Source of the DNA: a virus
Lineage: Duplodnaviria > Caudoviricetes
DNA: 52,067 nt
Strand: one strand, 5' to 3'
Virus record (IMG/VR): IMGVR_UViG_3300030098_005673
Location: 1 to 52,067 of that record
Below the pieces are notes generated by a model that was not told the origin of the DNA, ran no database searches, and saw only the letters and a list, made by a program, of their open reading frames with translations. Within the stretch, counting starts at the first letter, position 1. Every line of letters begins with the position of its first letter. Position numbers and translations under genes: made by a program. Of this stretch, positions 4,006-35,974 are shown piece after piece.

Positions 4006-4208
4006 TGGCTTTAATGAATTGGAAAACGACGTTATCGGGCGTTATTGGTGCGCTGGTTGTAATTGGCGCAGAGGTGCAAAAGTTTTTAGACGGTTCAGAG
4101 GCTACTCAGCCAGATTGGAACGTAGTAATCGGCGCAGTTGTTTTGGCGCTTGGTTTGTTCTTCGCAAGAGATGCGGACAAATCTTCCAAAGCAACGGGCG
4201 TAGAGTAA
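4005..4208 (+). CDS. Holin-like two-TM membrane protein
   Basis: 67 aa, NWKTT start, two hydrophobic segments, charged tail (ARDADKSS); TAATG coupling on both sides. Confidence 0.6.
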   Translation: MALMNWKTTLSGVIGALVVIGAEVQKFLDGSEATQPDWNVVIGAVVLALGLFFARDADKSSKATGVE

Positions 4209-5146: not shown

Positions 5147-5823
5147 AAATGATTTTAAAACTTGCTATGTGTTGTTTGTTTTTCTTGGCCGAGATTGAAA
5201 CAACTCCGGTCACATTTTACGAAGCCAAATCTGCTACGGTTGTGGATAATGGCGATGAAGTGCGAGTCATGCTGCAAGGCGGATCTGGGCAGGTCGGCTA
5301 TGGCGTGGTGGTGGATACAAAAAATGATGCGCTGCAATACATAGAAGTTCACGACGAGAAAAAGCCATTTCCTCCAAACGTGCTTGAGCCATTTGAGCCG
5401 GGCAAATTTTTAGTTGCAGGCCAGCCCGGTTCGGTGTTCTGGATATCCATACGTGCTGACGGTGCGCCTCCTGTCTGGATGTCCATCACAGTAGGAGAGA
5501 GAGGTCCTCCGCTTTCAGATCCGGATAGCGACCTCTATAAATGGGTTTTGAATAACAAGCCGAACGATCAAAAAACAGCCGATGTATTAGCCAGCTATTA
5601 CGAATCCGCTGTGAAAGAGTGCCAAGAAAATAATTACAATTTGCCGCAATCAAAGGTAACTGTTTCTTCAGCAAGGAAACGAGCGCTTTTATCTTTGGAC
5701 AGTCTAGACGTTGATTGGTCAGGATTCTTTATTGGACTAAACCAAGAGATAGACCCAACAAACGACGTGCCTTCTTATCTTAAAAAAATCAATTCAGTTA
5801 TTGAAGCTTTGCGGGCAAAGTAA
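5143..5823 (+). CDS. Hypothetical exported protein
   Basis: N-terminal signal-like segment; ATGA overlap with S8 gene. Confidence 0.7.
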   Translation: MKMILKLAMCCLFFLAEIETTPVTFYEAKSATVVDNGDEVRVMLQGGSGQVGYGVVVDTKNDALQYIEVHDEKKPFPPNVLEPFEPGKFLVAGQPGSVFWISIRADGAPPVWMSITVGERGPPLSDPDSDLYKWVLNNKPNDQKTADVLASYYESAVKECQENNYNLPQSKVTVSSARKRALLSLDSLDVDWSGFFIGLNQEIDPTNDVPSYLKKINSVIEALRAK

Positions 5824-5889
5824 ACTGCTATCGACATTTGGGGTGGCCTCTCGATACCTTAATTTGTATCAAAACCTTTGGAGCCACCC

Positions 5890-6897
5890 ATGCAAAAATT
5901 TAAAACGTCGTTTTTAGCGACATGCCTATTTCTTTTCCTGTCTGCAATTTGTCTAGCAGACGACCGCCGAGATGCTGCTGTTAAGATCGAATTCTCGATT
6001 CCTGTTAATGGCTTCGGAATGATTTGCCAGCCCGGAGAAACTCCGGCTTACTACGCCAGCGGATATGGTCGTGGGGTGATTGTTGGCGATGATGTTATTT
6101 TGACAGCCGATCATGTGATTGATGATGCTACAGAATTCAACATTATTTTTTCCGATGGCTCTACTGTCCAAAAGGTGAAGATAGTCAAACGAGATTCATA
6201 TTCTGATTTGGCGGTTTTGGAATGTGATGTTCCAGACGATTTGCCTGTTGCTGAAATTGCAAAAGACCAAGATCCAGAAGGTGTTTTTTATGTTTTCGGG
6301 AATAAGGATTACGAAGCAGAATGTCGGTACGACGCAGAGGGTTATTGGTGGTGCGATTCGGAGTGTACTCAAGGAGATTCGGGCGGGCCAATTTACAACG
6401 CCGATAGCGAGCTAGTCGGAATTGTTTCTGGCGGCTCGGTTTGGGTGAAAGAGCCAGAAGGCGGCCCAAAATCTTGCTGGCCTTTACGTGCTGGCTCATT
6501 GGAGTCAATTAAGCAGATTCTAAAGCGTGCCGGATACGAAGAACTCTACACTTTGAGCAATGGCGAGATTGGGCTTTTAGGTTATGAAAAAGCTTACAAC
6601 GTAGCAATGAAATCTGGACAGCCTCTGATTGTGGTTTTTGGGGCTTCATGGTGCGCACCCTGTAAGAAGATGAAAAAGGATGTTCTGGTTCCTTTGATGG
6701 AGTCCAAAAAATTAGCCGAATATTTGGTTGCATACGTGGATGTGGATAATCAGCCAAAGATTTACAAGAATATGATTGATGGCAAGATTTTAATTCCTGC
6801 TGTTGTGGTGTTTAAGAAAAAGCAAAGCGGGTGGGAAGTCAAACGCAAAAAGGGATATCTTAATCAGGCCAAATTTTTGGAGCTGATCAAATGGTAA
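5890..6897 (+). CDS. Secreted trypsin-like serine protease fused to thioredoxin domain
   Basis: Signal peptide; LTADHV, SDLAVL, GDSGGP triad motifs; C-terminal FGASWCAPC. Confidence 0.9.
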   Translation: MQKFKTSFLATCLFLFLSAICLADDRRDAAVKIEFSIPVNGFGMICQPGETPAYYASGYGRGVIVGDDVILTADHVIDDATEFNIIFSDGSTVQKVKIVKRDSYSDLAVLECDVPDDLPVAEIAKDQDPEGVFYVFGNKDYEAECRYDAEGYWWCDSECTQGDSGGPIYNADSELVGIVSGGSVWVKEPEGGPKSCWPLRAGSLESIKQILKRAGYEELYTLSNGEIGLLGYEKAYNVAMKSGQPLIVVFGASWCAPCKKMKKDVLVPLMESKKLAEYLVAYVDVDNQPKIYKNMIDGKILIPAVVVFKKKQSGWEVKRKKGYLNQAKFLELIKW

Positions 6898-7094
6898 CGC
6901 GGGTTTGCTTGGCGGCTATGCTGTCTCTTGCTGTTTTGTTGGCTTGTCACAACATCAAAATTTCTATTCCATGTGTGGTGTGCGGAGAGGCCACGTATAA
7001 GGAATCAATTTTGTGCCGAATCGCTGGGGGCTGGAACAAGAATTTTATGCACGACTCTTGTGTTTATCGGTATGAATCAAAACAACTGGATTGA
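6891..7094 (+). CDS. Small Cys-rich exported/membrane protein
   Basis: Hydrophobic N-terminus, CxxC and HxxC motifs. Confidence 0.45.
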   Translation: MVTRVCLAAMLSLAVLLACHNIKISIPCVVCGEATYKESILCRIAGGWNKNFMHDSCVYRYESKQLD

Positions 7095-16360: not shown

Positions 16361-18268
16361 ATGCCTGTCAAATCAGAAATCATCAAAGCGATGGCTGCTA
16401 GTGACTCAAGCGTAGTAAAAGCGAGAGTTCCTGCCAACTTCAAGGTCAGCACTGACTACCAACTAGAGCAGACCCTTCAGCAAAGCGGGGGCGGTTTTTC
16501 TAGCGACCACAGAAAAGAAGCTGAGATGTACACTGGATGGAACTACGTTGCCATCCATGCCATCGCTACTCAGTGCGGTCAGGCTGCTTGCTACGCCTAC
16601 TCTGAAGCTGACTCTATGCAGTCGGTTCAGAAGTCGATGTACAACGATAGGGATGATCAAGGTCGTCCTCTTTCCAAAGGAAGTCCCTTGCTTAAATTCC
16701 TTAAAAGGCCAAATCCAGAGCAGTCAGGGTCTTCATTCCGATTCGAAATGGCTTTGCAGTTAAAGCTAACTGGCAAGGTTTTGATCTGGAATATGCAAAA
16801 TAAATACGGAAAAGTTGTCCGTCGATATATCATTCCGACAGCAATTGTAGAGCCGAAGCAGCCTAGTAAAGATTTCCCAGATGGGTACTACAGAGTAAAG
16901 CCAGAGCTTGCACGACAGGGAGGCCAGCAAGGATGGTTTTTTGCGGGCCAGCACATGAGTTCTCTGGGCTACAATCTGGATGCAAAGTTTGTTCAGGTAA
17001 TTCTTGATCCTCATCCCGTTTACAGGGACGACGGGCAGTCTTCAGTGGCCGCTGGTGCTTTGTGGACTGATTCATCTAATCACATAGACACAGCCAGAAC
17101 CAACCATATGAGGCTTGGGCCAGATCCTTCAGTTCACGTTCACATAGCCGGGCAAATGGATGCGGCAGAGCTAAAGGGCGCAGAGTCTCGATTCAACCAA
17201 AAATACTGTGGAACAGACCGAGCAGGTCGGGCTATGTTCACCAGTGGTGACGGAGTTTCTGTCACGACCCTTTCCAACACGGCTAGAGACATGGCGTACG
17301 GGGAAGGCTTTACTCAGATGCGTGACGCTATCATGGCTCTGCATAAAGTTCCCCCAACTGCGGCTGGGATTGAGCAGGCTACAGGCGGCGAATCGCTTTA
17401 CGCACCACTGAAGCAATTTATTTATCTGACTATTCAGCCTATCTTAAACCTCTTTGCTGATGAAGATAACGAGAACTGGGTTTGGCAGTATGGCGAAGGC
17501 CACTATGTAGAATACCGAGCAAAGGCAATCGATGAGCCGGAGCAAAGAAACCGAGAACACGAAATTCTGATGAAGGCTGGAGCCATCACCAAGGGTGAGC
17601 TTCGGCTTAGAATGGGTATGCAGTTGTTCGGTGACGAGCGAGATGATGAAATGGCTGGTGCGGGGCAGGCTCCTTCTGGGATGGACCAAGGCGGGACTCC
17701 TGCCGCTATGGGAATGGACGGAGAAGATTCGGTAGCCAACCCCCCTCCTCAATTTTTTGGTTCGCAGAACGAAAACAATGAAGACTTTCAAAAACTTGAA
17801 AAATCTTTAGACGACCTTATATCTGAATTTAAATCAAACGAAATAGAAAAATGGGAACACGAGGAAAAAGCAGTCGAAAGCCAAAGCAAGGAAGCAAGCC
17901 CAAATCAGGCAAAGCCTGACGGCGATAGCGATCCAGAGCAAAGTTTTGCTAAAGAAAAAACGATCATGGGTTTTTCACTGGAAGGTCTAACGGAAGATCA
18001 AATAGAAAAACTTCAAGAACATAAAGAGCATCATACACGTTTTCACATAGGCTTGATGATTGATGCTATGAGAGAAGGTATGACTTTTAATCAGTCACAC
18101 TTAATTGCAAAGGAAAAAGAAAGTTTAGAGGCCGAAGATAAGAGTTTGTGGATTGGTTATGTTGGGCCTAGAGGCGGCAAAGGCTGGCGGCATAGAGAGA
18201 CAGGAGAGATTGACAGAGGAAAGGTTCGCCCTGATGAGCGAAGATCGAGTGGTAGGAGAGCTACATAA
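16361..18268 (+). CDS. Portal protein (HK97-type) with C-terminal extension
   Basis: AIHAIATQCG, LKRPNPEQS, LKLTGK, IMALHKVPP, TIQPIL, GAITKGELR motifs; first gene of head cluster. Confidence 0.9.
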   Translation: MPVKSEIIKAMAASDSSVVKARVPANFKVSTDYQLEQTLQQSGGGFSSDHRKEAEMYTGWNYVAIHAIATQCGQAACYAYSEADSMQSVQKSMYNDRDDQGRPLSKGSPLLKFLKRPNPEQSGSSFRFEMALQLKLTGKVLIWNMQNKYGKVVRRYIIPTAIVEPKQPSKDFPDGYYRVKPELARQGGQQGWFFAGQHMSSLGYNLDAKFVQVILDPHPVYRDDGQSSVAAGALWTDSSNHIDTARTNHMRLGPDPSVHVHIAGQMDAAELKGAESRFNQKYCGTDRAGRAMFTSGDGVSVTTLSNTARDMAYGEGFTQMRDAIMALHKVPPTAAGIEQATGGESLYAPLKQFIYLTIQPILNLFADEDNENWVWQYGEGHYVEYRAKAIDEPEQRNREHEILMKAGAITKGELRLRMGMQLFGDERDDEMAGAGQAPSGMDQGGTPAAMGMDGEDSVANPPPQFFGSQNENNEDFQKLEKSLDDLISEFKSNEIEKWEHEEKAVESQSKEASPNQAKPDGDSDPEQSFAKEKTIMGFSLEGLTEDQIEKLQEHKEHHTRFHIGLMIDAMREGMTFNQSHLIAKEKESLEAEDKSLWIGYVGPRGGKGWRHRETGEIDRGKVRPDERRSSGRRAT

Positions 18269-19261: not shown

Positions 19262-20443
19262 ATGAATAAATCAGAAGCTGAAGGTCTTTTGAGTTTTTGC
19301 AGGTCCGACAGCCAGCGAAGAGTCATGCAGGCTATTGTAGATTCTGGAAGTCGGCACGCTGCCTCCAGAGTTTTGGGTCTTCACCACAAAACCGTAAACA
19401 CTACGGCGGCTAGGGTCAAGGCTTACGCCTGCGACCGGGGATACTCTCCCGATCACGACATGGTACACCCAACTCCAGAGGGTTATTTTGTCGAGAAGAT
19501 GACGCATCAGCATTCCGGCGATGGTCAACTCGAAAGAGTTTGGACTAAATCAAAGAAAAACGCTGAAGAGATAGAAGCAAACATGAGAGCTTTTGTAGAG
19601 GCTCTTTGTGAAGACATCACTCCTTACAAAAAAATAAAGCTCCCCAAAGGCAAAAGAGCATCACGGCTAAAAACAAATTTAATTATCGGAGATGCACATC
19701 TTGGAATGTTTGCTTGGGGGCAAGAGACGGGGCGAGAAAATCACAACTTAAATATCGGACTGCGAGATTTGAAATCAGCAGCCGAATATTTAATTGAAAC
19801 ATCCCCAGCGTCAGAAACAATCGCTATCATCAACCTTGGGGACTTGCTCCACTGTAACGACCCCTCCTTCCAAACGCCTGCCAGCGGAAATCAGCTAGAC
19901 CATGACGGAAGATTTCCTAAAGTAGCCAGAGCCGCTGGCGAGTTTATGCGGCACGTTGTCTTAAAGAGCCTAGAAAAGTTTAATCAAGTTGAAGTTTATA
20001 ACGTGCGGGGCAATCACGATTCTTCGGCGGCGTTTTGGATAAATTATGTTTTAGAGGCTTACTTTGCGAAGAACAAAAGAGTCAAGGTTGTTCGCAATGA
20101 AACAAAGATGTTGAGCTATTCTTTTGGAAGTAATTTTGTGCCTTTAGACCACGGAGAGAAGGGTTTTAAGCGGCTCCATGAGGCTATTACTAGGGACTGC
20201 CGCCAAGAGCATGGTGCTGCGAAATACACCTATTGCTGGACAGGCCATATTCATCATAAGGTCAGGGACGAGATTGGAGGGGTTCATTTCGAGGCATTTA
20301 ACACCTTGATACCTCCCGATCAGTACCACGCTGACAAGGGCTATGGTTCAGCTCAGTCGATGACCTCGATTGTTTTGGACTTAGAGTACGGCGAGGTTGA
20401 CCGAAAAATTTGTTCACTCAACTTGGCTCGAAGCTTTCAATGA
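19262..20443 (+). CDS. Calcineurin-like metallophosphoesterase with N-terminal HTH
   Basis: GDAHLG, GDLLH, GNHD, DHGE, GHIHH motifs; N-terminal SRHAASRVLGLHHKTV. Confidence 0.85.
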   Translation: MNKSEAEGLLSFCRSDSQRRVMQAIVDSGSRHAASRVLGLHHKTVNTTAARVKAYACDRGYSPDHDMVHPTPEGYFVEKMTHQHSGDGQLERVWTKSKKNAEEIEANMRAFVEALCEDITPYKKIKLPKGKRASRLKTNLIIGDAHLGMFAWGQETGRENHNLNIGLRDLKSAAEYLIETSPASETIAIINLGDLLHCNDPSFQTPASGNQLDHDGRFPKVARAAGEFMRHVVLKSLEKFNQVEVYNVRGNHDSSAAFWINYVLEAYFAKNKRVKVVRNETKMLSYSFGSNFVPLDHGEKGFKRLHEAITRDCRQEHGAAKYTYCWTGHIHHKVRDEIGGVHFEAFNTLIPPDQYHADKGYGSAQSMTSIVLDLEYGEVDRKICSLNLARSFQ

Positions 20444-20792: not shown

Positions 20793-21980
20793 ATGGAAAG
20801 ACAGCGTAACAAACTCGGCACTTTTTTTAATCTGGATGGCTCGCAGGGGTATACCTCTGTGGGGTCTGTTGGCTTTGACGTAAACGAGATGTCAGCCACT
20901 GCTGTAATCACCACGCCAGCTTGGGATAGAACAAACGATTCACTGAACCCTGAAGGGGGTTCTACTGAAAAGTATAAATCTAACCCAGTTGTTTTGTGGG
21001 ACCACGGCAAGGACATCACCATCCCTGTTGCAAAGTGCGAAGACAGAAAAGGCAACTTGTCAATCGTGAAGTCGAAAGACGGATGGATTGGCACAAGCTA
21101 TTTTTCTTCTAAGTCTAAACAGTCAGAGCAGATTTTTGATCTAATCACCGAAGGGATTATCCGGGCAACGTCTGTTCGGTTTTGTCCTTTGGAGCAGCCG
21201 ATCATTAAAAGCCAAGGACGTTTGTTTAATTCTTGGGAATTAGAAGAGTGGTCTTGGTGTCCTATCGGAGTCAACCCCGAAGCAATTCGCTGTGCTTTAT
21301 CTTCTGGCCGACTGGCTGGATCACAGATGGACGGTTCGATTCGTAAATCGTTAATGTCGGCTGTCCCAGAACAACAAACTAAATCTTTTAAGATAGGCTG
21401 GGAGAATATGAACCAGAATATGACCGGGGAGAAGCTCGGCTCGCTAATTTTGCAAGCTACTCACTCCCAGTTACACGCTTGCTCGAAGAATGTCAAAAAG
21501 GCAATGTCGAGCTTAGAAAATCCAAACACAGAGAGCTTGCTCAACGAAGTGCTTGAGGCCATGAAGAATCTCATGGGCGCACTCGAAGGTGGACATAAGT
21601 CTGAGTACAAAGATGATATGCCTTCCTACGACGATGAAGCGACTGGTCCAGAAGAAATGAAGGGTCGTGGAATGTATGGAGATGAGGAAGAAGAAGAGAT
21701 GATGAAGTCTTTTCTTTCCAAAAATCCCTTGCAGCGTTTCAACGTCTTGAACATGAGCGGCAAGCTCGACGCAATCAGCAAGTCTGTGGAAGGCCAAAGT
21801 GCTGTAGCAATCGCCTCGATTGCAAAAAGCTGGTCTGACCTAGTTACTGAAGCTGGTAATGTAAAACAAGTATCTCCCAAGATTGAAAAATTGGACGGAG
21901 ATATTTCCGAGGTACGGGAAGCGGTTTCTCACCTCAAGTCTCTAATTAAGGAACAAGTTCCTTTTAGCAGGAGTAAGTAA
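20793..21980 (+). CDS. HK97-family prohead protease with scaffold-like C-terminus
   Basis: DRTNDSL.PEG, NPVVLWDH, RATSVRF, LEEWSWCPIGVNPEA; directly upstream of capsid gene. Confidence 0.9.
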   Translation: MERQRNKLGTFFNLDGSQGYTSVGSVGFDVNEMSATAVITTPAWDRTNDSLNPEGGSTEKYKSNPVVLWDHGKDITIPVAKCEDRKGNLSIVKSKDGWIGTSYFSSKSKQSEQIFDLITEGIIRATSVRFCPLEQPIIKSQGRLFNSWELEEWSWCPIGVNPEAIRCALSSGRLAGSQMDGSIRKSLMSAVPEQQTKSFKIGWENMNQNMTGEKLGSLILQATHSQLHACSKNVKKAMSSLENPNTESLLNEVLEAMKNLMGALEGGHKSEYKDDMPSYDDEATGPEEMKGRGMYGDEEEEEMMKSFLSKNPLQRFNVLNMSGKLDAISKSVEGQSAVAIASIAKSWSDLVTEAGNVKQVSPKIEKLDGDISEVREAVSHLKSLIKEQVPFSRSK

Positions 21981-23251
21981 TGTCTGATATTAAGACACCT
22001 GAGCAACAGATTGCAGAACTGAAAAGCGAGGTCGGTGATCTGACTGCCGCTCTAAAGACTGCTGCTGAAGGCTCTATCGTAAAGTCTCACAGTGACTCAT
22101 CAGCGTCATATTGGGGCGAAGCTGAAGAAGTGGCAACGATTAATGCCAATAACGCTGGCCATCGCAGCAACTATGTTGCTGAAGGTTGGCAGGGTTGTGG
22201 CAAATCGGAATTTAAATCTTTTGGCGATTTCCTGAAGTCGGGCTATGCTGCAAAAGGTCAGGGCGAATGGCGCAAACAAGCGTTGACTCCTTACCAGCCA
22301 GTAATGAAAGCCGTTCAGGGTATGAGCGAGCAAGTTGGTGCTGACGGTGGATTCATGGTTTACCCTGAATTTTCCAAGAGCATTCTTGAGCGAGTTTACG
22401 AAAACGACATTTTTGCCCAGACCGACAACTACACGGTTGGTGGCAACTCTTTGACGTTTACTCGCAACGCTGAAACAAGCCGAGCTAACGGAAGCCGTCA
22501 CGGTGGCGTTCGTGGTTACTGGGTTGCTGAAGGCGGCTCGTTGACCAAATCTAACCCAACTCTGGCTCAAGTTTCTTTGCGACTGAAGAAATGTGCTGTT
22601 TTGGTTTACCTGACAGACGAAATTCTTCAGGACACTGGTTCTTCCTTGGAAGATTACGTTTCTCGCTGTGCCGCTGCTGAATTTAACTTCATGCTCGGCG
22701 ATGCAGTATTCAACGGAACTGGCGCTGGTCAGCCTTTGGGAATCACCAACGGCGGATCATTGGTTTCTGTTGCCAAGGAATCTGGTCAAGCTGCTGATAC
22801 AATCGTATCTGCTAACATTGACAAAATGTGGGCGCGACGAGCCATGGGTTCTAACAAGTACCAGTGGTTCCACCATCAAGATTGTGGTGCAGAGATCGAC
22901 GATCTTGGATTCGACGTTGGAAACGGTGGCGTTCCGCTCTACCGCACCAACAACAGCATTGCAGAGCAGTCTCCACAGACTCTCAAAGGTGCTAAACGAA
23001 CCGAAACTGAATTTAACGCCACCCTTGGTGACGCTAATGACATTATTCTCGCTGACCTATCTCAGTACCTGACTATTTCTAAGGGTGGCATCACTCAAGA
23101 AGCTTCGATTCACGTCGAATTCTTGACTGATCAGACTGCTCTGCGATTTGTGATGAGAGTAGATGGCCGTCCATGGGAGGATTCTTCCGTTCAGCAGTAC
23201 AAGGGTTCAAACACTCAGTCTGCTTACATTAACTTGGCCGCACGAGCATAG
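21980..23251 (+). CDS. Major capsid protein (HK97 fold)
   Basis: GADGGFMVYPEF, WVAEGG, LTDEILQD, GTGAGQPLGI, DQTALRFVMRVDG. Confidence 0.95.
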   Translation: MSDIKTPEQQIAELKSEVGDLTAALKTAAEGSIVKSHSDSSASYWGEAEEVATINANNAGHRSNYVAEGWQGCGKSEFKSFGDFLKSGYAAKGQGEWRKQALTPYQPVMKAVQGMSEQVGADGGFMVYPEFSKSILERVYENDIFAQTDNYTVGGNSLTFTRNAETSRANGSRHGGVRGYWVAEGGSLTKSNPTLAQVSLRLKKCAVLVYLTDEILQDTGSSLEDYVSRCAAAEFNFMLGDAVFNGTGAGQPLGITNGGSLVSVAKESGQAADTIVSANIDKMWARRAMGSNKYQWFHHQDCGAEIDDLGFDVGNGGVPLYRTNNSIAEQSPQTLKGAKRTETEFNATLGDANDIILADLSQYLTISKGGITQEASIHVEFLTDQTALRFVMRVDGRPWEDSSVQQYKGSNTQSAYINLAARA

Positions 23252-27210: not shown

Positions 27211-27915
27211 ATGGGCTATTCTCCTTCCACTACAGCAATGTCGGCAGTCAGCTCAGGTTCCCTTACCTACGCTGCATTGTCATACATCAAAACGCAACTT
27301 GGAATTTCGGGTTCTGGCGAAGACACGAAGCTAACCCAAATGGGGCTGCAAGCTGAAGAAATTTTTGAGAGAGAAACTGGCCGAAGTTTTGTAGCTGCAA
27401 CTTACACTCACTACTTTGACGGCAACGGGGAGTTCGACCTCGTTCTCAGGCAGTACCCTGTCAACTCAATCACATCGATTCACGAGGATGCGGATGGGAG
27501 ATACGGAGCCTCAGCCGACCCCTTCCCATCCTCAACTTTATTGACGAAGGGCGAAGATTACGCACTTGACGCTTTAGACGGATCTACAAGCTTTAGTGGT
27601 ATTGTACATCGAATTGGAGCTAGGTGGCCGAACAAACGAATTGCTGGACGGACAGAAGTTTCTCATTTAGAAATGAACCGACGAGGCAACATCAAAGTAA
27701 TCTACAATGCCGGATATTCCACAGTTCCTGTAGATATCAAAATGGCTATTTGCAACATCGTTGCCATGACTAGAAAAAGTGCTGCTGGCGGTATGCCGAT
27801 TAGCGGGTTTTCTCTGGACTACTTTAACGTCCAGTATGCCAACAGCTCTGAAGCAATGGCTAGGCTGGACTCAGCCACAAGAATTATTAACCGCTACAAA
27901 AGGCCAAGCTTCTAA
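27211..27915 (+). CDS. Head-tail adaptor (gp6/gp15-like)
   Basis: IKTQLGIS..EDTKL...FERETGR.F, YPVNSITSI, YNAGYSTVPVDIKMA. Confidence 0.85.
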   Translation: MGYSPSTTAMSAVSSGSLTYAALSYIKTQLGISGSGEDTKLTQMGLQAEEIFERETGRSFVAATYTHYFDGNGEFDLVLRQYPVNSITSIHEDADGRYGASADPFPSSTLLTKGEDYALDALDGSTSFSGIVHRIGARWPNKRIAGRTEVSHLEMNRRGNIKVIYNAGYSTVPVDIKMAICNIVAMTRKSAAGGMPISGFSLDYFNVQYANSSEAMARLDSATRIINRYKRPSF

Positions 27916-28247
27916 TGATTACCCCAGAAGAAATAGCTGCCTTTTCCGATGCTATGCCGGATATGAAAACTGTGACGTTCCATCCACGGAGCGGCGGCAC
28001 GTTTGCTTCTGGTCAGTCGGTTACGAACGCTGAAAAGCGACCAATCACAGCAAAAGAAATGGCATCCATTCAGGGATTTCTTTCGGGTGCTGATATCGTT
28101 TGGCACATCTGGGATGAGTCTGTAACGACCACTCCAAAGTCAGGCGACAAGATCGTAGACGACGAATCAACTACATGGCTAGTTAAATACGCAGTTGAAG
28201 AATTGCTGGGACAAAGACATCGTCTTTTTTGCACGAAGGGCAAGTAA
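27915..28247 (+). CDS. Probable head-closure/stopper protein
   Basis: Size and position after adaptor; PKSGDKIVD...TW.V motif. Confidence 0.6.
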   Translation: MITPEEIAAFSDAMPDMKTVTFHPRSGGTFASGQSVTNAEKRPITAKEMASIQGFLSGADIVWHIWDESVTTTPKSGDKIVDDESTTWLVKYAVEELLGQRHRLFCTKGK

Positions 28248-31200
28248 TGCTTCCTACTCACGAGAAACTTTGGACCTCAGTTTTCAAAGCCGACGACAAC
28301 TGCGGAGCCAACGCTCCCGGCGGTGGAGGGTTCCAGCCGGGTAATGATTGTGCTGCGGATAAAGATGGTAATCAGGATTTGAAAAACGAATACAAGGACA
28401 CATACGCCGATGAAAGGATATCTAGATTGCAAGCTGACGCAGATGATGGCTTGCTCAAAAAAGAAACAGCCGAAGCCCTTATAAAGATTGCCCAAAAAGA
28501 GTCGCATGGCTACGACCCCAACAGAAAACCTCACGAATATTTTAAAGGCAGCAGGGCTGATTTTTCAAAACAAACTTTGTACCACGCTAGCCAGCAAGAC
28601 ATAGAAGGAAAGCCAAGGCTTCCGTTTTATTTAGGTTCAACTTCTTCGCTTGCAAAAAAAGCGGCTTTGGCAGGAGGCGTATCTGAAATTGGAGATGCCT
28701 TGTACGCGACAAGAAGTTCCGGCGACTACAAGGTTTCAGAATGGAGCGTCAGTCCAGAGGCTAAGGTGTATGGCATGGACATGCACCTTGAAGGCTTTGA
28801 CCTGCCTGAGTCGATGTCATTTGATGATTTCGAAAAAATTAAAGGCGAAATAAAAAACACGGTTTGGTCTGAAGACTCGCAAGTGCAGGAGACTGCTTCT
28901 GAATTAGCTAATAAAGTTTACAACAGGTCTTACGCCGTGTTCAAAGACAAGGGCGGGGTTTGGCAGGCAAAGAAGCACAAGCGACTGATGCAAGATGACC
29001 AAAACGCCATGCCGCCTAAGCCAATAGGCCACAAAATGTCTTTTGGGTGGAAGGAGATGGATTCTGAGGTGGCTCAAGGCAAGCGGCTTCCAGATGCTTT
29101 GCGGGCCTTGGGATATGATGTGGCTTTTGTAGACGACGAGGCAATTAAATCGGTCGTGGCTTTGACGGACGACGCAATACAAAAAAAATCAACGAGCGTT
29201 TCAAAATCCAAAGACAACTGCGGCGCTAACGCTCCCGGCGGTGGGGGGTTTCAGCCGGGTAATCAGTGTGCAGCGGATAAAGATGGTGATGAGCCTGCTT
29301 CAGGTAAAAGAACTAAAGCGTTCGACGAGTGGTTTGGCGATTCAAAAGTAGTCGATGAAAACGGCGATCCGCTGGTGGTCTACCACGGCGTAAAAGACCC
29401 GAAAATTAAAGAGATAAAAGACGGGAAAATTGTTTGGGATATTGGGTTTGATGTCTTTGATACAGAAGGTGGAATGGAAGCCGGAGCGTATTTTTCTCCA
29501 GATATAAATGTGGCGAAAAAGTACGGAACTCCAATACCATTTTATCTAAGGGCGACTAGCCCAATACAGAAAGAAGACCCGATCAGTTCAGCTCCACATA
29601 ATGCTGATTCAATCTTTAGAACCCGTGGCAAATCCAATAAAATACAAGACGCTTGGGAGATTGCCGTATTTAATCCATCTCAAATTAAAATGGCTGTTGG
29701 CAACGAGAACCCAACCGACGACCCCAGCATCTACAAATCCAAAGACAACTGCGGAGCCAACGCTCCCGGCGGAGGTGGGTTTCAACCGGGTAATGATTGC
29801 GCTGCGGATAAAGACGGTGGCGGTGATGAGCCTGCTTCGGGGAAAAGAACTAAAGCGTTCGACGAGTGGTTCGGCGATTCAAAAGTAGTTGACGAAAACG
29901 GCGACCCGCTGGTGCTGTATCATGGGACATCGCAGGCGTTCGACGATTTTAGCGAATTAAAAAGGGGGTCTTTAACTGACGCTGAAAGTGCGTCAATGGC
30001 AACTTTTTTTACTGATGACGAAAAAACAGCAAACGCCTACGCCATTCATGCTGCTGAATATGGGCCAGTAAAAGACGCTTTAGACAAAGCTAATCTTGCT
30101 GAAAAACGGCAGGATTGGGAGTCATACGACAAGTTTATAAGAGAGGCTGAGTCTTTAGACGCTTACGACCAAAAAAGGCAGCGACGGAAAGACAGCGCTA
30201 AGACCATGAAGGTTTATTTGCGCGGGGACTTTATGGTTGTCGATGCGGAAGGGAAAACCCCGCAAGACTGGTCTAACGACGAGAATATAGATTCTTGGCT
30301 CACGTCAAAACTAAAAGAAGCCAAGGCGGAGGGCAGGGATGGCGTGAGGTTCGATAACCTCGACGATGCGGTTGGGTTGTATAACAGGCCAGCTACGCAC
30401 TTTGCGGTTTTTAACCCTGATGGAAACGTAAAAGACATAGACAACGAGAACCCGACCGACGACCCTAGCATCCACAAATCCGCCGACAAGCCCAAATCTG
30501 ATTGCGGCGCGACTGGTGGTCCGGGGCCGGGTTCTGGGGGGTTTAAGCCGGGTAATGATTGCGCAGCGGATAAAAATAGTAAGGAGTCTGGTGCTGGCAA
30601 AAAAAACAACGACAAAGATATTGATGAAAAAAATCTTGACCTGTTTGAAACTAAAATTAAAAACCGCCACTTAAAAATTGCTATTCAAGAAGCAGCTTTT
30701 ACTAAAAATGGTACGGTAGATGACCGCCAAGTTCGAGAGGCAATAAAAAAAGACTTTGAAAAGAACGGGTATCCAGACAAGCCCGGACTGCCTTCCGATT
30801 TAGAGGAAGCCGCATATCAAGAGGCATTGGCATACGCACAAAATAACGATTGGTATCGGGAGGAAGCAATTGACTATGAAAACAAACATCGAGAAAGGTT
30901 TCTTAAGCAACGGACTGACCGACAGTCCGAGGATCAGGCAAATTACGCAACAGTAAAAGCTCAAAAGCAAAACGTCACAAAGAGACAGAATGATGCGCTG
31001 GCTGATTATGCTGGTGCCTACAGCGGACACATGGGAAAGATTATGCGAGGAGATGCTGATCAAGTTCAAGATGGCGGTCAAGGTGAGGAAAACAAGGAGT
31101 GGGTTAATTATTTAAAAACCAGCATAAACGAAATAGACAAAGCCCTAGAGTCACACTCATTTGATAAAGACGTAAGGGTTTATCACGGGATGGAGTGGAA

Positions 31201-34200
31201 GAAAGTTAATGCTAAATCAAATAAAGATTTAATAGGAAAGACTATTCACGATCCAGCGTTTTTAAGCACAACAACGAGATTTGAAACCGCCGATAGGTTT
31301 GACAGCAAAGATTGGTCCAAAGACGACAAAATTGGTTTTGGCGGCGTAATAAGGCTTACTATCCCTAAAGGAACACCGGCTATTGCAATAGGATTGCGGA
31401 ATCCTTATTGGGGGGACAGGGAGCAGGAGGTGCTGCTTGGAGGAAATTACGGAATAAAAATTATTGCTATGAATGACTACAGCAGCTTAGAGGAAGGGAA
31501 AAGAGGCATTGTTTTTGACGCTGAACTTGTAGATATGGAAAAGTCTAAAAACAAATCTATGTCTATTTTTAAATCCGAATCCGACTGCGGCGCTAACGCT
31601 CCCGGCGGCGGGGGATTCCAGCCGGGGAATGACTGCGCTGCGGATAAGGATGGTGGCGGTTCAGCAGAGTCGCAGCCTGAAAGCACCGAACTAAAAAAGT
31701 TTTTAAACTCCTACAATGAAGATTATGGCGAAGAAGCCGAGTCTTTTTCGGACATTGCTGGACTGCCTGATGACGAAGAACTTTTTAACAAGCTAAAGGA
31801 CTCTTTAACTGCTGAAGAATATCTGTCTCTAGTTGAAAACGCAGGCGGTAACGCTGTTATAGCTGGATACAGTGTAGAAGAATTAGAAACAGAATACGGG
31901 AACCCTTTACACGAAGCTTTGGGCAGGCAGGAAAAACTGGGCTTTTCGATAGACGGCGATCCTTTGAAGCCCGGTGAACTTACAAAATACGACGGCGGCA
32001 ATTACGAACCAGAGGAAGCCCCGGATTTTGATGAATTTATGAGAAACCAATACCCCGAAGGTTACTCGTTTATTGAAAGCGGCTTTCTGCTCGCTGATGG
32101 GACGCTTCTGGATATGTCACATGGCTCTGGATCAAGAGCGGATGACCACCGGAGCATTATACCGAGCGAAGCGGCTTCTAAGCGGTGGGGATTTAGTGAA
32201 CAAGAAATGGAGTACCGTGGTTCTCGAATGATGGCTACGGTTCGTCGTGCTGGAGCGTTAAGGATTGACGGAGCTGCAGGACTTATTAACAGCGTTGAAG
32301 GAAACTCTATAACGCCTGCACAAAGGGACAAAATTCAGCAGTACATCGATGACTATCAACCAGAGCAAATATATTTTGATGTGGATGACGGCACAGCTAG
32401 AAGTGTACACGGCGGCACAGTCGATAGTCCCCGTAATGCTTCTCAAGTTATAAATGCCATGCGGGACTATGACAGCAGCAATAAGTCTCTACCCCGTCAC
32501 GAAACTCTCTGGCTGTCAGTGTTCAAGAGCGACGACGGCCCCAAAAGCGATTGCGGAGCCAACGCTCCCGGCGGTGGTGGATTTCAGCCGGGGAATGATT
32601 GCGCCGCTGGCGGCCAAAGCATATCTGTTGCAGACAAAGGCGTTGCAAACAAAACGGGCGATTACGCTATAGATGACGACGTTCCGGCAAAAGCTGGCAG
32701 CGTTGAAATTCCCGACAATCATGTTCGGTTTTTTCATTATTCAAGCCTGCGAAGCGAAGACTCAGAAAATACGGGTGACGCATTTGACGACGCTAACAAA
32801 CGCGCAAAGTCAATCCGGCAAAGCGGCATAAAAATGGGGTCGGCAAGAGGCGAAAGATTTGGAGAGCCAAATCAAATATGGGCTACTGTAACCAATGTGC
32901 CGGACAACATTGGAGAAAAGGTATACGTAGAGTTTTCGCTGCCTTTTGACGATCCAAGAATTGGCGGAACAATTTCTGGCAATAAAGACGTAAAAGAGGC
33001 GAGGTCTGCTTCGCAAGCAACATTTATCGGCGACATAAAGCCAAGCGAAATTATTGCTGTACATGAACCGTGGCACAAGCGATTTCGGTACGCAGTTATG
33101 GATGACGACGAGCGGACGCTTGACTCAAAAGTTTTAGATCGAGCGGCAAGTGGCTACTACGATCATATTTTAGACCCAAAAAAGAAACACACTTCTGATT
33201 ATCGAGCAGCGTACAGGCGGATAATAGATATTGCAAAACGCCGAAAAAAATCCTTGCCTTGCCATGAGTCGCTTTGGTTGTCCGTTTTTAAATCGGACGA
33301 CGGCCCTAAGAGCGATTGTGGTGCTAATGCTCCCGGCGGTGGCGGGTTCCAACCCGGCAACGATTGCGCAGCGGATCAAGATGGCAAAAAGAAAAAGAAA
33401 AGCAGCAAGGAGTTGTTCCGCGAAGAAGTTTTGGAAAACGCTAAAAACTTTCCCGTTACTGACGAAGATGTCTATGACCCTGAAGAAGTAATGTATAACT
33501 ATGACGATTTAAGCAGTAGCGAACAGCAGGAGTACGATGAGTATATTGATTACTCGCTGGAAGAACTTGAGTACATCGCCGACGAGCATGAAGACGAGTG
33601 GAAAATTGCCGACGATGAGGTTTATGAAAGAGCTACGCAGGCAATGATTGACGACGGCATAGACATAAATGAAATGATGGAAAATGACGAAGACGCATTT
33701 TACGATTTAGAGCAAGGCTATTTGGACTCCGCCCATCAGGAAGTAGAAGAAGCAAACTATCAAGCCAGAAAAGAGTGGTGGGAAGACTGGAGTGAAATGT
33801 ACCGCGATGAGGTGCGCTACGATCAATATCAAGTCCAAGAGTTTTTTGTTGATCGTTTTGAAAGCACTTACATAGAAAACCCGGATGGTGACGGGTTTGT
33901 AAACACTAAAAACGTCGGCGAGCTAGGCTTAAACAAATGGGGTAAGGACAAAGACGGCGATTTTGTTTTGCGTTTTGAAACCGAAGCCGGTACGCCGTAC
34001 ACGATTACTACATACGACCGGTCGGCGCAGCAAGGCAGAACACATCGCACTATTATGTTTGATCAGGCAGGCGACTACGGAATTAAGGGGACCGGAAGTG
34101 CGCATGAAGTATTTTCAAAAGTAATAGGTGCAATTGCTTCAAAGCACCAAGAAGCGCCTGCTGACGTTTACACTTTTACGGCAGCCGAGCCTTCTCGAAA

Positions 34201-35398
34201 AACCTTATACAAACGATTGGTAAAAAAGCTGGGCGCCGTTTTCCCCGAACTTAAAGGTGCTATGTATGACAGGGGCGGGTCTGCTACTTACGTTGTTGGA
34301 AATCGCGATTACGAGGAACTTTGGAGCGGCGAAGTTGACAAGAAAATTAACGATGCCGAAATTATTTTGAAATCGCATTTTACAAAGCACTTTATGGATG
34401 TCGTTGCAGAGTCTGAAGCAATTTACTGGCAGAGCGTGCAAAAGTCTGGCTGGGAAGGTTCAATTTGCAAATCAAAGTACGACGGCATTGATTTTAGCGT
34501 CACCCCCGGAATGATTAGTGCTGCCAAGCGTGGACTTGAGCTACGCAAAAAACACAAACGGGGAGGGACTAGAATTGGGGCAACTCGTGCAACACAAATT
34601 GTCAATCGCAAGAAACTTAGCCCTGACACTTGGAAGCGTGTATTCTCTTACTTCAGCAGGCATGAAGTAGACAAGCAAGGCAAGGGCTGGGGTAAGGACA
34701 GTGCTGGATATATCGCTTGGCTTTTGTGGGGTGGTGATGCTGGTTTTTCCAGATCGCGGAAAATCACAAAACAGATGAAGGCGCGCGACGAGAAGAAATC
34801 TCTTCCTCACCACGAAAAACTTTGGAACTCAGTATTTAAGGCTGCTGACCCAAGACGAACCCCTGCACCCAAAAAGGACCAAATAAAAGGTTCTAAGAAA
34901 AACAAAAAAGGCAGTGCTAAAAACGTAAGCGGCAAAATTACCTTTAGCGAAGCTACCACCAAAAAACTTTCGAAGCTAGTCAAGGAACACAACGCCAAAG
35001 GCAAAGGTTCTAAGGCCAATCTTCGCCAGTTAAAGGCTGTCTACAGGAGAGGTGCTGGAGCCTTTAGCACGAGCCACGCTCCGAACATGTCTCGTGACGG
35101 ATGGGCTATGGCTAGAGTCAGGGCGTTCTTGCACCTGCTAAGAACTGGAAGCCCAAAGAACGCCGCATACAAACAGGACAATGACTTGCTGCCAAAAGGC
35201 CATAAAAAGAAAAGCGAAAAAAAGTCGCTTTCAGATCGCGAAAACCTGCGAAAACCTGTATTTAAGTCAAAATCGGCAGAATTTGACCTAAAATGGCCTC
35301 CAGAGGCCGCTAGAGGCGTTAAAAGTGGACAGCCATCAAATGATACGCCTGAAATAATAGAGCGTCACAGGGCTTTTGGGGAGCTTTGGGATGAATAG
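28247..35398 (+). CDS. Giant modular polyvalent protein (2383 aa) with multiple ADP-ribosyltransferase-like domains
   Basis: TAATG coupling to upstream gene; two ART-PolyVal-like domains (WFGDSKVVDENG.PLV.YHG), one VIP2-like domain (FLSTT, EQEVLL), two further H-type ART-like domains, seven CGANAPGGGGFQPGNDCA repeats. Confidence 0.9.
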   Translation: MLPTHEKLWTSVFKADDNCGANAPGGGGFQPGNDCAADKDGNQDLKNEYKDTYADERISRLQADADDGLLKKETAEALIKIAQKESHGYDPNRKPHEYFKGSRADFSKQTLYHASQQDIEGKPRLPFYLGSTSSLAKKAALAGGVSEIGDALYATRSSGDYKVSEWSVSPEAKVYGMDMHLEGFDLPESMSFDDFEKIKGEIKNTVWSEDSQVQETASELANKVYNRSYAVFKDKGGVWQAKKHKRLMQDDQNAMPPKPIGHKMSFGWKEMDSEVAQGKRLPDALRALGYDVAFVDDEAIKSVVALTDDAIQKKSTSVSKSKDNCGANAPGGGGFQPGNQCAADKDGDEPASGKRTKAFDEWFGDSKVVDENGDPLVVYHGVKDPKIKEIKDGKIVWDIGFDVFDTEGGMEAGAYFSPDINVAKKYGTPIPFYLRATSPIQKEDPISSAPHNADSIFRTRGKSNKIQDAWEIAVFNPSQIKMAVGNENPTDDPSIYKSKDNCGANAPGGGGFQPGNDCAADKDGGGDEPASGKRTKAFDEWFGDSKVVDENGDPLVLYHGTSQAFDDFSELKRGSLTDAESASMATFFTDDEKTANAYAIHAAEYGPVKDALDKANLAEKRQDWESYDKFIREAESLDAYDQKRQRRKDSAKTMKVYLRGDFMVVDAEGKTPQDWSNDENIDSWLTSKLKEAKAEGRDGVRFDNLDDAVGLYNRPATHFAVFNPDGNVKDIDNENPTDDPSIHKSADKPKSDCGATGGPGPGSGGFKPGNDCAADKNSKESGAGKKNNDKDIDEKNLDLFETKIKNRHLKIAIQEAAFTKNGTVDDRQVREAIKKDFEKNGYPDKPGLPSDLEEAAYQEALAYAQNNDWYREEAIDYENKHRERFLKQRTDRQSEDQANYATVKAQKQNVTKRQNDALADYAGAYSGHMGKIMRGDADQVQDGGQGEENKEWVNYLKTSINEIDKALESHSFDKDVRVYHGMEWKKVNAKSNKDLIGKTIHDPAFLSTTTRFETADRFDSKDWSKDDKIGFGGVIRLTIPKGTPAIAIGLRNPYWGDREQEVLLGGNYGIKIIAMNDYSSLEEGKRGIVFDAELVDMEKSKNKSMSIFKSESDCGANAPGGGGFQPGNDCAADKDGGGSAESQPESTELKKFLNSYNEDYGEEAESFSDIAGLPDDEELFNKLKDSLTAEEYLSLVENAGGNAVIAGYSVEELETEYGNPLHEALGRQEKLGFSIDGDPLKPGELTKYDGGNYEPEEAPDFDEFMRNQYPEGYSFIESGFLLADGTLLDMSHGSGSRADDHRSIIPSEAASKRWGFSEQEMEYRGSRMMATVRRAGALRIDGAAGLINSVEGNSITPAQRDKIQQYIDDYQPEQIYFDVDDGTARSVHGGTVDSPRNASQVINAMRDYDSSNKSLPRHETLWLSVFKSDDGPKSDCGANAPGGGGFQPGNDCAAGGQSISVADKGVANKTGDYAIDDDVPAKAGSVEIPDNHVRFFHYSSLRSEDSENTGDAFDDANKRAKSIRQSGIKMGSARGERFGEPNQIWATVTNVPDNIGEKVYVEFSLPFDDPRIGGTISGNKDVKEARSASQATFIGDIKPSEIIAVHEPWHKRFRYAVMDDDERTLDSKVLDRAASGYYDHILDPKKKHTSDYRAAYRRIIDIAKRRKKSLPCHESLWLSVFKSDDGPKSDCGANAPGGGGFQPGNDCAADQDGKKKKKSSKELFREEVLENAKNFPVTDEDVYDPEEVMYNYDDLSSSEQQEYDEYIDYSLEELEYIADEHEDEWKIADDEVYERATQAMIDDGIDINEMMENDEDAFYDLEQGYLDSAHQEVEEANYQARKEWWEDWSEMYRDEVRYDQYQVQEFFVDRFESTYIENPDGDGFVNTKNVGELGLNKWGKDKDGDFVLRFETEAGTPYTITTYDRSAQQGRTHRTIMFDQAGDYGIKGTGSAHEVFSKVIGAIASKHQEAPADVYTFTAAEPSRKTLYKRLVKKLGAVFPELKGAMYDRGGSATYVVGNRDYEELWSGEVDKKINDAEIILKSHFTKHFMDVVAESEAIYWQSVQKSGWEGSICKSKYDGIDFSVTPGMISAAKRGLELRKKHKRGGTRIGATRATQIVNRKKLSPDTWKRVFSYFSRHEVDKQGKGWGKDSAGYIAWLLWGGDAGFSRSRKITKQMKARDEKKSLPHHEKLWNSVFKAADPRRTPAPKKDQIKGSKKNKKGSAKNVSGKITFSEATTKKLSKLVKEHNAKGKGSKANLRQLKAVYRRGAGAFSTSHAPNMSRDGWAMARVRAFLHLLRTGSPKNAAYKQDNDLLPKGHKKKSEKKSLSDRENLRKPVFKSKSAEFDLKWPPEAARGVKSGQPSNDTPEIIERHRAFGELWDE
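28301..33370 (+). repeat. Seven dispersed in-frame repeats encoding CGANAPGGGGFQPGNDCA
   Basis: First-Cys codons at 28301, 29219, 29750, 30503 (variant CGATGGPGPGSGGFKPGNDCA), 31586, 32552, 33317; synonymous variation between copies. Confidence 0.95.
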
Positions 35399-35542: not shown

Positions 35543-35974
35543 ATGAAAGTTAGCTTGGAAGAGGCTGTTAATCTTGTTAATGAGTTTGGAGATGATCTTA
35601 TTCGGGGTAGCTATGAAATACCCTTGGCTGCTTGCTCTGAAGAGTTGCGCCTTGGCTTTGTAGAGATTTTCTCTAATCAGACATCTTCCGAGGGAGAAAG
35701 CTGGCCTCCTCATAGTCCGGTGACAATAAAACTTTACGGAGAGCATCCTCTTTTGATTTTAAGCGGTTCGCTTTACGACGAACTCACTTCCGGAGTAGAC
35801 GAGTCAACCGAAAGAAGTATTAGCGTGGGAACGGATCTAGACTATGCTGAGTGGAACAACGATGGCACTGAAAAAATACCGGCTAGGGAGTTTATGTATA
35901 TTCCTGAAAGCGCTCAGGATGCTTGCGTTGAACACATTGGCGACTACGTTTTTGACCTTTTACCCGGCGATTAA
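35543..35974 (+). CDS. Virion morphogenesis/tail completion protein (Mu gpG / P2 S-like)
   Basis: F..QTS.EG..W.P.SP.T, LILSGSL, VGTDLDYA...N.GT.KIPAREFM. Confidence 0.8.
   Translation: MKVSLEEAVNLVNEFGDDLIRGSYEIPLAACSEELRLGFVEIFSNQTSSEGESWPPHSPVTIKLYGEHPLLILSGSLYDELTSGVDESTERSISVGTDLDYAEWNNDGTEKIPAREFMYIPESAQDACVEHIGDYVFDLLPGD

Follow-up and report, generated by a model that had tools for sequence, protein, structure and literature searches.

The window analysed here, the whole 52,067 bp of IMG/VR virus record IMGVR_UViG_3300030098_005673 (Caudoviricetes), is a complete virus genome with direct terminal repeats, and among its head and neck genes lies one very long open reading frame (ORF). 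We find that its product is a polyvalent protein of the phage type, with about nine independent cargo modules in a row. At least three of them (M2, M3 and M4) are ADP-ribosyltransferases (ARTs) by family, with catalytic activity predicted, and M1 and M6 are possible further ones. Seven modules carry a conserved Cys-Gly tag behind a short linker, and the linker motif recurs in the capsid protein of the same phage. On these sequence grounds, the polyprotein is probably packaged and cut by the prohead protease. No near-identical DNA was found among GenBank phages.

28247..35398, + strand: polyvalent effector polyprotein gene, 2383 amino acids (aa); stop-free translation; Pfam ART-PolyVal twice, ADPrib_exo_Tox and DUF5824; 58 long relatives

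The frame runs uninterrupted from ATG to stop; the earliest in-frame start is a TTG at 28229, which would give 2389 aa. Seven tags of the form C-G-A-[NT]-x5-8-G-G-F-[QK]-P-G-N-[DQ]-C were counted in the protein, with their first Cys at aa 19, 325, 502, 753, 1114, 1436 and 1691.

28301..28351, + strand: tag 1, aa 19-35, Cys to Cys
29219..29269, + strand: tag 2, aa 325-341
29750..29800, + strand: tag 3, aa 502-518
30503..30562, + strand: tag 4, longer 20-aa variant CGATGGPGPGSGGFKPGNDC, aa 753-772
31586..31636, + strand: tag 5, aa 1114-1130
32552..32602, + strand: tag 6, aa 1436-1452
33317..33367, + strand: tag 7, aa 1691-1707

The six tags of 17 aa have the same peptide in five cases and a D to Q change in one. 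At the DNA level any two of them are alike in only 44-52 of 57 nt (5-13 differences), and nearly all changes are synonymous; the tags are thus not recent DNA copies, and an origin as recent repeats or recombination scars was ruled out on the same ground. Judged by this pattern, the tag peptide, not the DNA, is what is selected.

Every tag is preceded, at a distance of 4 or 8 residues, by a linker of the form [SP][VI]xK/[SA], and further copies without a tag stand at K2066, K2198, K2340 and K2075. The motif [SP][VI]xK[SA] occurs 11 times in the polyprotein against 0.37 expected by shuffling (none of 5000 shuffles reached 11), and 10 of the 11 copies lie at module borders. A longer form, LPxHExLWxSVFK, makes up the N-terminus of the protein and returns at aa 1415, 1670 and 2186. 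Cuts predicted at the ten border motifs would yield a 14-aa leader, the tagged modules M1 to M7 (177-384 aa), the untagged M8 and M9 and a 43-aa tail. The earlier note on this DNA, made by eye, had proposed seven repeats of linker, tag and cargo followed by two untagged basic modules. Both parts of this description stand: each of the seven tags sits behind the linker, and the isoelectric points (pI) of M8 and M9 are 10.4 and 11.0.

28247..28288, + strand: N-terminal 14-aa leader MLPTHEKLWTSVFK, ending in the first linker (K14/A15); the string is conserved at the N-terminus of relative P0002
35267..35395, + strand: M10, 43-aa C-terminal peptide past the last linker (K2340/S2341), delimited from the sequence; no relative among the 59 proteins compared; may be a targeting tail or a leftover

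We examined the linker motif, defined on the polyprotein alone, in the other ORFs of the phage, with 5000 shuffles for comparison. In the portal, protease/scaffold and capsid proteins together (1453 aa) it was found 8 times against 0.22 expected, a count that none of the shuffles reached. The other 44 + strand ORFs (10,808 aa) held 3 copies against 1.29 expected, as many as in 732 of the 5000 shuffles, and the five minus-strand ORFs held none.

16361..18268, + strand: portal protein with 2 linker motifs close to its N-terminus (Pfam PF04860; motif count)
20793..21980, + strand: prohead protease-like domain (about aa 29-194) and scaffold-like C-terminal half, 4 linker motifs (phrog_617 on the N-terminal part; phrog_80)
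21980..23251, + strand: major capsid protein of the HK97 fold family, linker motifs at K35/S36 and K110/A111 (Pfam Phage_capsid, PF05065, from aa 123)

The capsid copies read SIVK/S (K35) and PVMK/A (K110), the latter being followed by AVQGMSEQVGADGGFMVYPE. This second copy, PVMK/AVQG...GADGGFMVYPE, lies 12 residues ahead of the Pfam capsid domain, which starts at 123. In HK97, the capsid protein gp5 matures by a cut after Lys103, some ten residues ahead of the corresponding stretch, and we take K110/A111 to correspond to that maturation cut. The polyprotein hence shares a candidate cut-site motif with the capsid protein and scaffold of its own phage, and this sharing argues for cutting by the prohead protease. 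The K-S/A linkers that had been read by eye therefore match a motif enriched in the portal, protease/scaffold and capsid proteins, including the expected maturation site.

The presumed protease, encoded by ORF 20793-21980, matches phrog_617 in its N-terminal part (6.6e-11) and phrog_80, head maturation protease (3.6e-6), and carries the strings LWDHG and ATSVRF, taken by eye as His and Ser motifs. Its score against NF045541 (14.7 bits) is far under the cut-off, and no match was obtained in Pfam, curated NCBIfam or PDB sequences, so that the protease family is likely, not proven. Complex prediction with the protease/scaffold protein and an alignment of linker-tag peptides gave a score of 0.01, which counts neither for nor against binding. 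We also compared the capsid N-termini of 16 other tag-bearing phage records. These were readable in 13 but not in G017, G020 and G023, and all 13 contain a candidate K/[SA] cut. In some phages the capsid cut and the phage's own linker are alike (IALAK/S and IALK/A, SQVK/A and AQVK/A, CYK/AVQG and [FI]VK/A); the comparison is loose because nearly all have Lys at P1.

The cargo modules were assigned as follows.

28289..29206, + strand: M1, tagged, possible divergent ART-PolyVal, aa 15-320 (weak leads)
29207..29737, + strand: M2, tagged, ART-PolyVal, aa 321-497 (Pfam PF18760, 51.5 bits against a cut-off of 31.2)
29738..30478, + strand: M3, tagged, full-length ART-PolyVal, aa 498-744 (PF18760, best stretch 549-737 covering profile positions 1-139 of 140)
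30479..31573, + strand: M4, tagged with the 20-aa variant, C3/VIP2-type ART domain, aa 745-1109 (Pfam PF03496, 50.4 bits against a cut-off of 23.4)
31574..32527, + strand: M5, tagged, unknown domain, aa 1110-1427 (homologous stretches in P0004 and P0014)
32528..33292, + strand: M6, tagged, small alpha/beta domain, possibly of ART-superfamily fold, aa 1428-1682 (three homologues)
33293..34444, + strand: M7, tagged, acidic stretch and DUF6934-like C-terminal domain, aa 1683-2066
34445..34840, + strand: M8, untagged, pI 10.4, aa 2067-2198 (phrog_2859)
34841..35266, + strand: M9, untagged, pI 11.0, DUF5824, aa 2199-2340 (Pfam PF19141, 32.6 bits against a cut-off of 25)

On the whole polyprotein PF18760 scores 76 bits over two stretches. 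By Pfam the protein thus holds several distinct effector-type domains (ART-PolyVal twice, ADPrib_exo_Tox and DUF5824), and of five further modules some have relatives of their own and others none. The reading of M2 and M3 as ART-PolyVal-like and of M4 as a VIP2-like ART, made by eye in the earlier note, is borne out by matches above the curated cut-offs. C3/VIP2-type ARTs have the catalytic motifs R, S-T-S and E-x-E. In an alignment of M4 with four relatives, STT and EQE are kept, and motif 1 (about aa 938-945) reads VRVYHG against YRG or YRA in P0002, P0017 and P0016; since the Arg of motif 1 is replaced by His, the activity of M4 is uncertain. A motif-1 His thus stands together with the S-T-T and E-Q-E motifs typical of Arg-type ARTs. 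PDB sequence searches with the M4 ART domain, with M7 and with M8 plus M9 gave nothing usable.

The by-eye ART readings of M1 and M6, the latter as a Tpt1/DUF952-like fold, are not confirmed and have weak hints in their favour. Against a local ART-PolyVal profile built from 92 segments M1 reached a weak 6.9 bits, and hhalign gave it a probability of 1%. Its sole positive lead comes from a protein-atlas search, in which the three best clusters carry PF18760 with scores of 0.90-0.91. M1 has no Pfam or PHROG match, and no homologue at E≤0.01 was present among 1248 candidates of 139-443 aa, the lengths searched.

The M6 model obtained with AlphaFold2 (AF2) had a predicted local distance difference test (pLDDT) value of 61. 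Compared by VIA with 48,161 chains, its best hit was weak (Z 5.2, root-mean-square deviation 3.9 over 83 residues). At least 15 of the best 50 rows are ARTs, PARPs, DarT or tRNA 2'-phosphotransferases, all below Z 8, the 'common' level of the tool. Foldseek found no match in PDB at E≤0.001, and a protein-atlas lead to a DarT/PARP cluster came only at rank 23. The three homologues of M6 have H-x-R-x-x-H-Y, GEP, VEFS and AVHEPW invariant. Two of them, P0061 and P0062, are stand-alone proteins of 176-177 aa without leader or tag, so that the same cargo would be used both packaged and unpackaged. The string HEPWH at aa 1606 is the sole HExxH string of the polyprotein, and M6 as a zincin peptidase was ruled out, the second His being Q in 2 of the 3 homologues. 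By Pfam no peptidase domain was found in the polyprotein, and no NCBIfam family matched it.

For M5 no Pfam, PHROG or PDB sequence match was obtained. M7 has no Pfam family of its own; its aa 1725-1900 (176 aa) contain 56 D/E against 12 K/R, and its C-terminal domain aligns to P0012, P0015, P0019, P0048 and P0004, the P0015 copy matching Pfam DUF6934.

The gene lies within the virion genes. Portal, MuF-like, protease-like, major capsid and head-tail adaptor genes are found 5′ to it, the MuF/SPP1-gp7-like match being weak, and a Neck1/tail-completion homologue followed by a tail protein 3′ to it. The polyprotein ATG shares its A with the TAA of a 110-aa ORF upstream (TAATG), and GAAGGG stands a few bases before.

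27211..27915, + strand: head-tail adaptor (phrog_442, 1e-25)
27915..28247, + strand: 110-aa ORF whose TAA overlaps the polyprotein ATG (85% aa identity to the ORF directly upstream of the polyprotein of a sister phage)
35543..35974, + strand: Neck1/tail-completion homologue, directly 3′ of the polyprotein gene (phrog_26, 1.9e-10)

Given the start/stop overlap and the flanking adaptor and Neck1 homologues, the earlier claims of one 2383-aa ORF, translationally coupled and placed inside the neck operon, are correct, and the head and neck flanks together with the Pfam-confirmed ART modules agree with its description as a multi-module effector in a block of virion genes. A metallophosphoesterase/exonuclease of DNA-repair type (19262-20443; phrog_704, 1.3e-84) stands in an unusual place within the head block, between the MuF-like gene and the protease gene.

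The sister phage (57,352 bp, complete) carries a polyprotein in the same slot, from the 110-aa ORF to Neck1, with flanks 83-97% identical. M2 is shared at 99% and M7 at 90%, M3 at only 39-47%, and no match to M1, M4, M5, M6, M8 or M9 was found in this phage. On this comparison, the exchange of cargo far outpaces change in the virion genes. A conserved gene position with variable cargo, which the earlier note had suggested looking for, is found in this one sister genome, the one available. The polyprotein region of the sister phage (L001, L006; about 9.3 kb) reads as four long open segments (1137, 559, 557 and 858 aa) that lie in different frames. Within an M1-like end the frame changes, and the segments could be separate genes, frameshifts or assembly errors.

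Fusions to head proteins were observed among more distant relatives. Some carry tag-delimited cargo fused to portal or MuF proteins, and M8 homologues head giant protease-containing head proteins. The cultured Roseobacter phage CRP-821 (L096) has a 974-aa 'major capsid protein' (locus 4094-7018) whose N-terminus is made up of M8 and M9 homologues; as it starts in this way, passenger domains are fused in this protein, probably to protease/scaffold and capsid parts. An M9 homologue also adjoins an M8 homologue in L002.

We then examined the distribution of the tag. It is present in 20 of the 58 long relatives, 6 of which 58 have a precomputed portal domain. Its exact DNA pattern was found in 16 stretches of IMG/VR, and a peptide-pattern scan gave 58 distinct loci. 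A profile of 38 tag windows matched 607 of 1.84 billion representative proteins at E≤0.001, 134 of them at E≤1e-10. The following statistics refer to 138 newly listed proteins among these 607, with 309 tags. Of the 138, 135 match the tag expression and 116 have at least two tags, at a median spacing of 290 aa; in 56 of the 135 no more than 60 aa separate the first tag from the N-terminus. N or D directly precedes the first Cys in 243 of the 309 tags, and the C, G, GF, GN and C of the tag are invariant across otherwise unrelated proteins. By Pfam, the 71 tagged proteins of up to 1000 aa contain the repertoire of polyvalent proteins, including ART-PolyVal (16), Topoisom_I (Topo IB; 5), Phage_Mu_F (5), Phage_portal (4), ADPrib_exo_Tox (4) and NUDIX (3), and also GNAT and RelA/SpoT domains. 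The tag is constant, and the linker upstream of it varies with the phage.

Twenty further tag-bearing viral contigs were searched for head genes. A portal match was obtained in 11, above the cut-off in 10, and PF05065 in 12; nine of the ten portal matches above the cut-off lie in frames of 1064-1838 aa and are portal-cargo fusions. AF2 prediction of linker, tag and M3 (12-row alignment) gave a mean pLDDT of 45, with the tag region below 50, and was uninformative on the shape of the tag. A polyvalent protein of 2388 aa with ART-PolyVal in Dolichospermum phage Dfl-JY45 has no tag. Another recurring string between modules, EH-x-DHDQK[ST]HGNW, is present in several copies in P0004 and before the M6-like domain of P0060, and may be an alternative tag.

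Cysteines are distributed unevenly. Fourteen of the 16 Cys of the polyprotein are tag Cys, and the 2261 residues outside the tags contain the remaining 2, compared with a Cys content of 1.39% in the other ORFs of the phage (binomial p ~1e-11). Class-wide, this content is 0.35% for 156 tagged proteins, tags excluded, and 0.31% for 41 untagged relatives. Since untagged relatives are equally Cys-poor, low Cys content supports a property of the class and not the tag model, and it points to exposure of these proteins outside the cell.

Taken together, these observations would fit the following scheme. The polyprotein would be synthesized late, together with the virion proteins, and enter the procapsid, where the phage's own HK97-type prohead protease would cut after Lys in [SP][VI]xK/[SA]. 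The same type of site would mature the capsid protein and trim the scaffold/protease and the portal. The products would be the 14-aa leader, seven modules starting a few residues before their tag, the two basic untagged modules and the 43-aa tail, and the tag would stay at the new N-terminus of each freed module. The freed pieces would be ejected with the DNA, and the ARTs would act on host targets at the very start of infection.

In this scheme the tag would be needed per module, not per protein. A role as plain capsid-targeting signal is weakened, as portal-fused cargo, which is already targeted, keeps one tag per module; a role as recognition site of one protease type is unlikely because linkers of different chemistry precede the tag. 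As neither fits, we favour a function for each module: most likely the tag presents the adjacent cut site or serves the freed module in ejection or on arrival. The closing of a loop by its Cys pair in the oxidising virion is speculation. In a broader form, which we put forward tentatively and hold to be rather doubtful, the two-Cys Gly-rich tag [N/D]-C-G-[A/T]-x(1-8)-G-G-F-x-x-G-N-x-C would, together with a phage-specific protease site, be a portable mark for the in-capsid release and ejection of tailed-phage cargo, with its Cys closed by disulfide or metal in the virion and open in the cytoplasm. If true, such a portable tag would be the phage counterpart of encapsulin cargo-loading peptides or of the T4 capsid targeting sequence, common to hundreds of unrelated phages.

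Several observations weigh against packaging and prohead cutting as proposed here, or against parts of it. K[SAGT] occurs within ten residues upstream of just about 126 of the 309 tags, and other tagged families (P0016, P0018) have linkers without Lys, for example I-L-N-S-E or M-x-[LFM]; a cut specific for Lys therefore does not go with every tag. The motif itself is short, 2 of its 4 copies in the protease ORF lie inside the predicted protease fold, and that ORF is assigned by PHROG matches and by-eye His/Ser motifs, Pfam and PDB being blank. The low Cys content is seen in untagged polyvalent proteins as well (0.31%), and M4 has His in place of the motif-1 Arg of its relatives.

The distribution of the tag also holds points of this kind. 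Eight of the 20 further contigs have neither PF04860 above the cut-off nor PF05065 (G006, G014, G015, G018, G019, G021, G024 and G009), four of them being at least 90% complete, so that, at the sensitivity of the search, the tag is not confined to one head-gene lineage. The exact tag DNA pattern was found in 1 of 185,579 species genomes, and tblastn with a 36-aa tag window against GenBank phages gave no match at E≤10, though the low-complexity filter of BLAST may hide some. The one genome match, L027, is a contig of 23,667 bp from an archaeon metagenome-assembled genome, where a long frame contains the short tag form CGTGAGGFQPGNDC at about 6184-6212; it is probably a viral contig binned with that genome.

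Among other explanations, the one that best withstands the evidence is a polyvalent protein packaged and injected but uncut by the prohead protease, that is, transferred whole or processed after entry, with the tags as structural joints (disulfide- or metal-closed loops, or hinges). The N4 virion RNA polymerase is packaged unprocessed and other polyvalent proteins are transferred at full length (PMC5512222). The tag is constant while the residues preceding it vary among phages, most tagged proteins have at least two tags, which allows pairwise Cys4 sites, and no metallopeptidase domain was found in the polyprotein. We nevertheless consider this explanation unlikely: the strong enrichment of the linker motif falls on just those proteins which a prohead protease cuts, portal-fused cargo would be unable to leave the virion without a cut, and the N-terminal leader repeats internally as SLPxHExLWxSVFK.

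It is quite improbable that the protein is not packaged at all and acts late in the cytoplasm as a multi-enzyme, for instance in superinfection exclusion or late host manipulation, merely encoded inside the structural operon. Virion residence of the polyprotein is indeed an inference, and M1, M5, M6 and M7 are without assigned function, but in relatives there are covalent fusions to portal, MuF and capsid precursors, the sister phage has its polyprotein in the same slot of the neck block, and Cys are depleted as in the rest of the class.

The chance is also slim that the tag itself is the processing element, cut at or within the tag (e.g. at [N/D]/C) by its own chemistry or by a common factor, K/S/A being incidental. 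The N or D found so often before the first Cys, the invariant tag residues and the association of the tag with upstream linkers of differing chemistry would agree with such a role. Nonetheless, a motif as short as 14-17 residues lacks a fold that could catalyse a cut, linker copies stand without a tag in capsid, scaffold and portal, and no precedent was found in the literature searched. Finally, carriage in the neck or tail lumen and ejection ahead of the DNA, like a tape-measure-associated protein, would suit a gene placed among connector genes between adaptor and Neck1 but is very improbable, since the cleavage-type linkers match head proteins and the fusion partners of the relatives are portal, MuF and capsid protein, which are built into the procapsid or assembled within it.

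The concept of a packaged and injected protein of this kind is not new, as the phage-type polyvalent class was already defined by Iyer, Burroughs, Anand, de Souza and Aravind in 2017, who predicted packaging and injection (PMC5512222). The class is described as having two to fifteen distinct effector-type domains per polypeptide, among which ART, GNAT, NUDIX, RelA/SpoT, ParB and Topo-type domains recur (PMC5512222); the polyprotein is likewise built of many effector domains. The genes of the class stand among the late virion genes of portal-terminase phages, with MuF and portal fusions (PMC5512222); similarly, portal, MuF-like, capsid, adaptor and Neck1 genes surround the gene studied here. 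Processing is ascribed there mostly to zincin metallopeptidase domains, present in about 36% of the class, assemblin-like peptidases being noted in a few members only, at their C-termini, and the processing of P1 DarA/DdrB is cited (PMC5512222). In contrast, no zincin domain was found in our polyprotein. The words 'cysteine', 'linker' and 'glycine-rich' do not occur in the main text of that paper, although its supplementary alignments might show the motif, and a Cys-Gly tag on each module with linkers matching the capsid site is not described in that main text (PMC5512222). Tag peptide strings such as GFQPGN are absent from the searchable literature, a search for 'ART-PolyVal' turned up only an unrelated eukaryotic family, and one for capsid targeting sequences with prohead proteases gave nothing on such a tag.

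Comparison with better known systems places the proposed processing among several precedents. In T4, the counterparts are Alt, which PMC5512222 describes as well, and the internal proteins that bear a capsid targeting sequence. Here an ART is packaged in the head, loses its N-terminal leader to the prohead protease and is injected along with the DNA. The short leader of the polyprotein, ahead of the first candidate cut and seen also in stand-alone tagged proteins, looks analogous. However, T4 has one protein per gene, a Glu-specific protease and a mature protein without conserved tag, whereas the polyprotein has many modules per gene, a predicted cut after Lys and a conserved tag that would be kept. 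With HK97 gp4/gp5 the phage shares the Pfam capsid family, an N-terminal part of about 110 aa and a candidate Lys cut about 10 residues before G-G-F/L-x-x-P. The known substrates of the HK97 protease gp4 are the capsid protein and the protease itself; here, by contrast, the same type of site would also free cargo modules.

MuF-fused polymorphic toxins of temperate phages and the Dar proteins of P1 are processed effectors that a head-assembly protein carries into the head. They have one effector per carrier and no repeated tag, whereas the polyprotein strings together about nine modules and, M8-M9 excepted, lacks a carrier domain of its own. Encapsulin cargo-loading peptides are short conserved peptides that bring cargo into an HK97-fold shell. 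The tags are likened to them by role only; unlike them, the tags are N-terminal or internal and Cys-bracketed, and portal-fused relatives keep their tags though already targeted. What we regard as undescribed is a widespread organisation in which a conserved Cys-Gly tag and linkers matching the site of capsid maturation are combined with cargo free of cysteine.

Polyvalent proteins are regarded as the weapons that a phage fires first, and their loading, separation and release have so far been predicted only. The genome studied here offers a testable grammar of leader, protease site shared with the capsid, conserved tag and cysteine-free cargo. If this grammar holds, cut sites and mature effector ends could be read from sequence in hundreds of uncultured phages, and the quickly exchanged cargo sets would serve to catalogue enzymes that act early against the host or its defences. 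Tag and linker together could also become a laboratory tool to load chosen proteins into phage heads.

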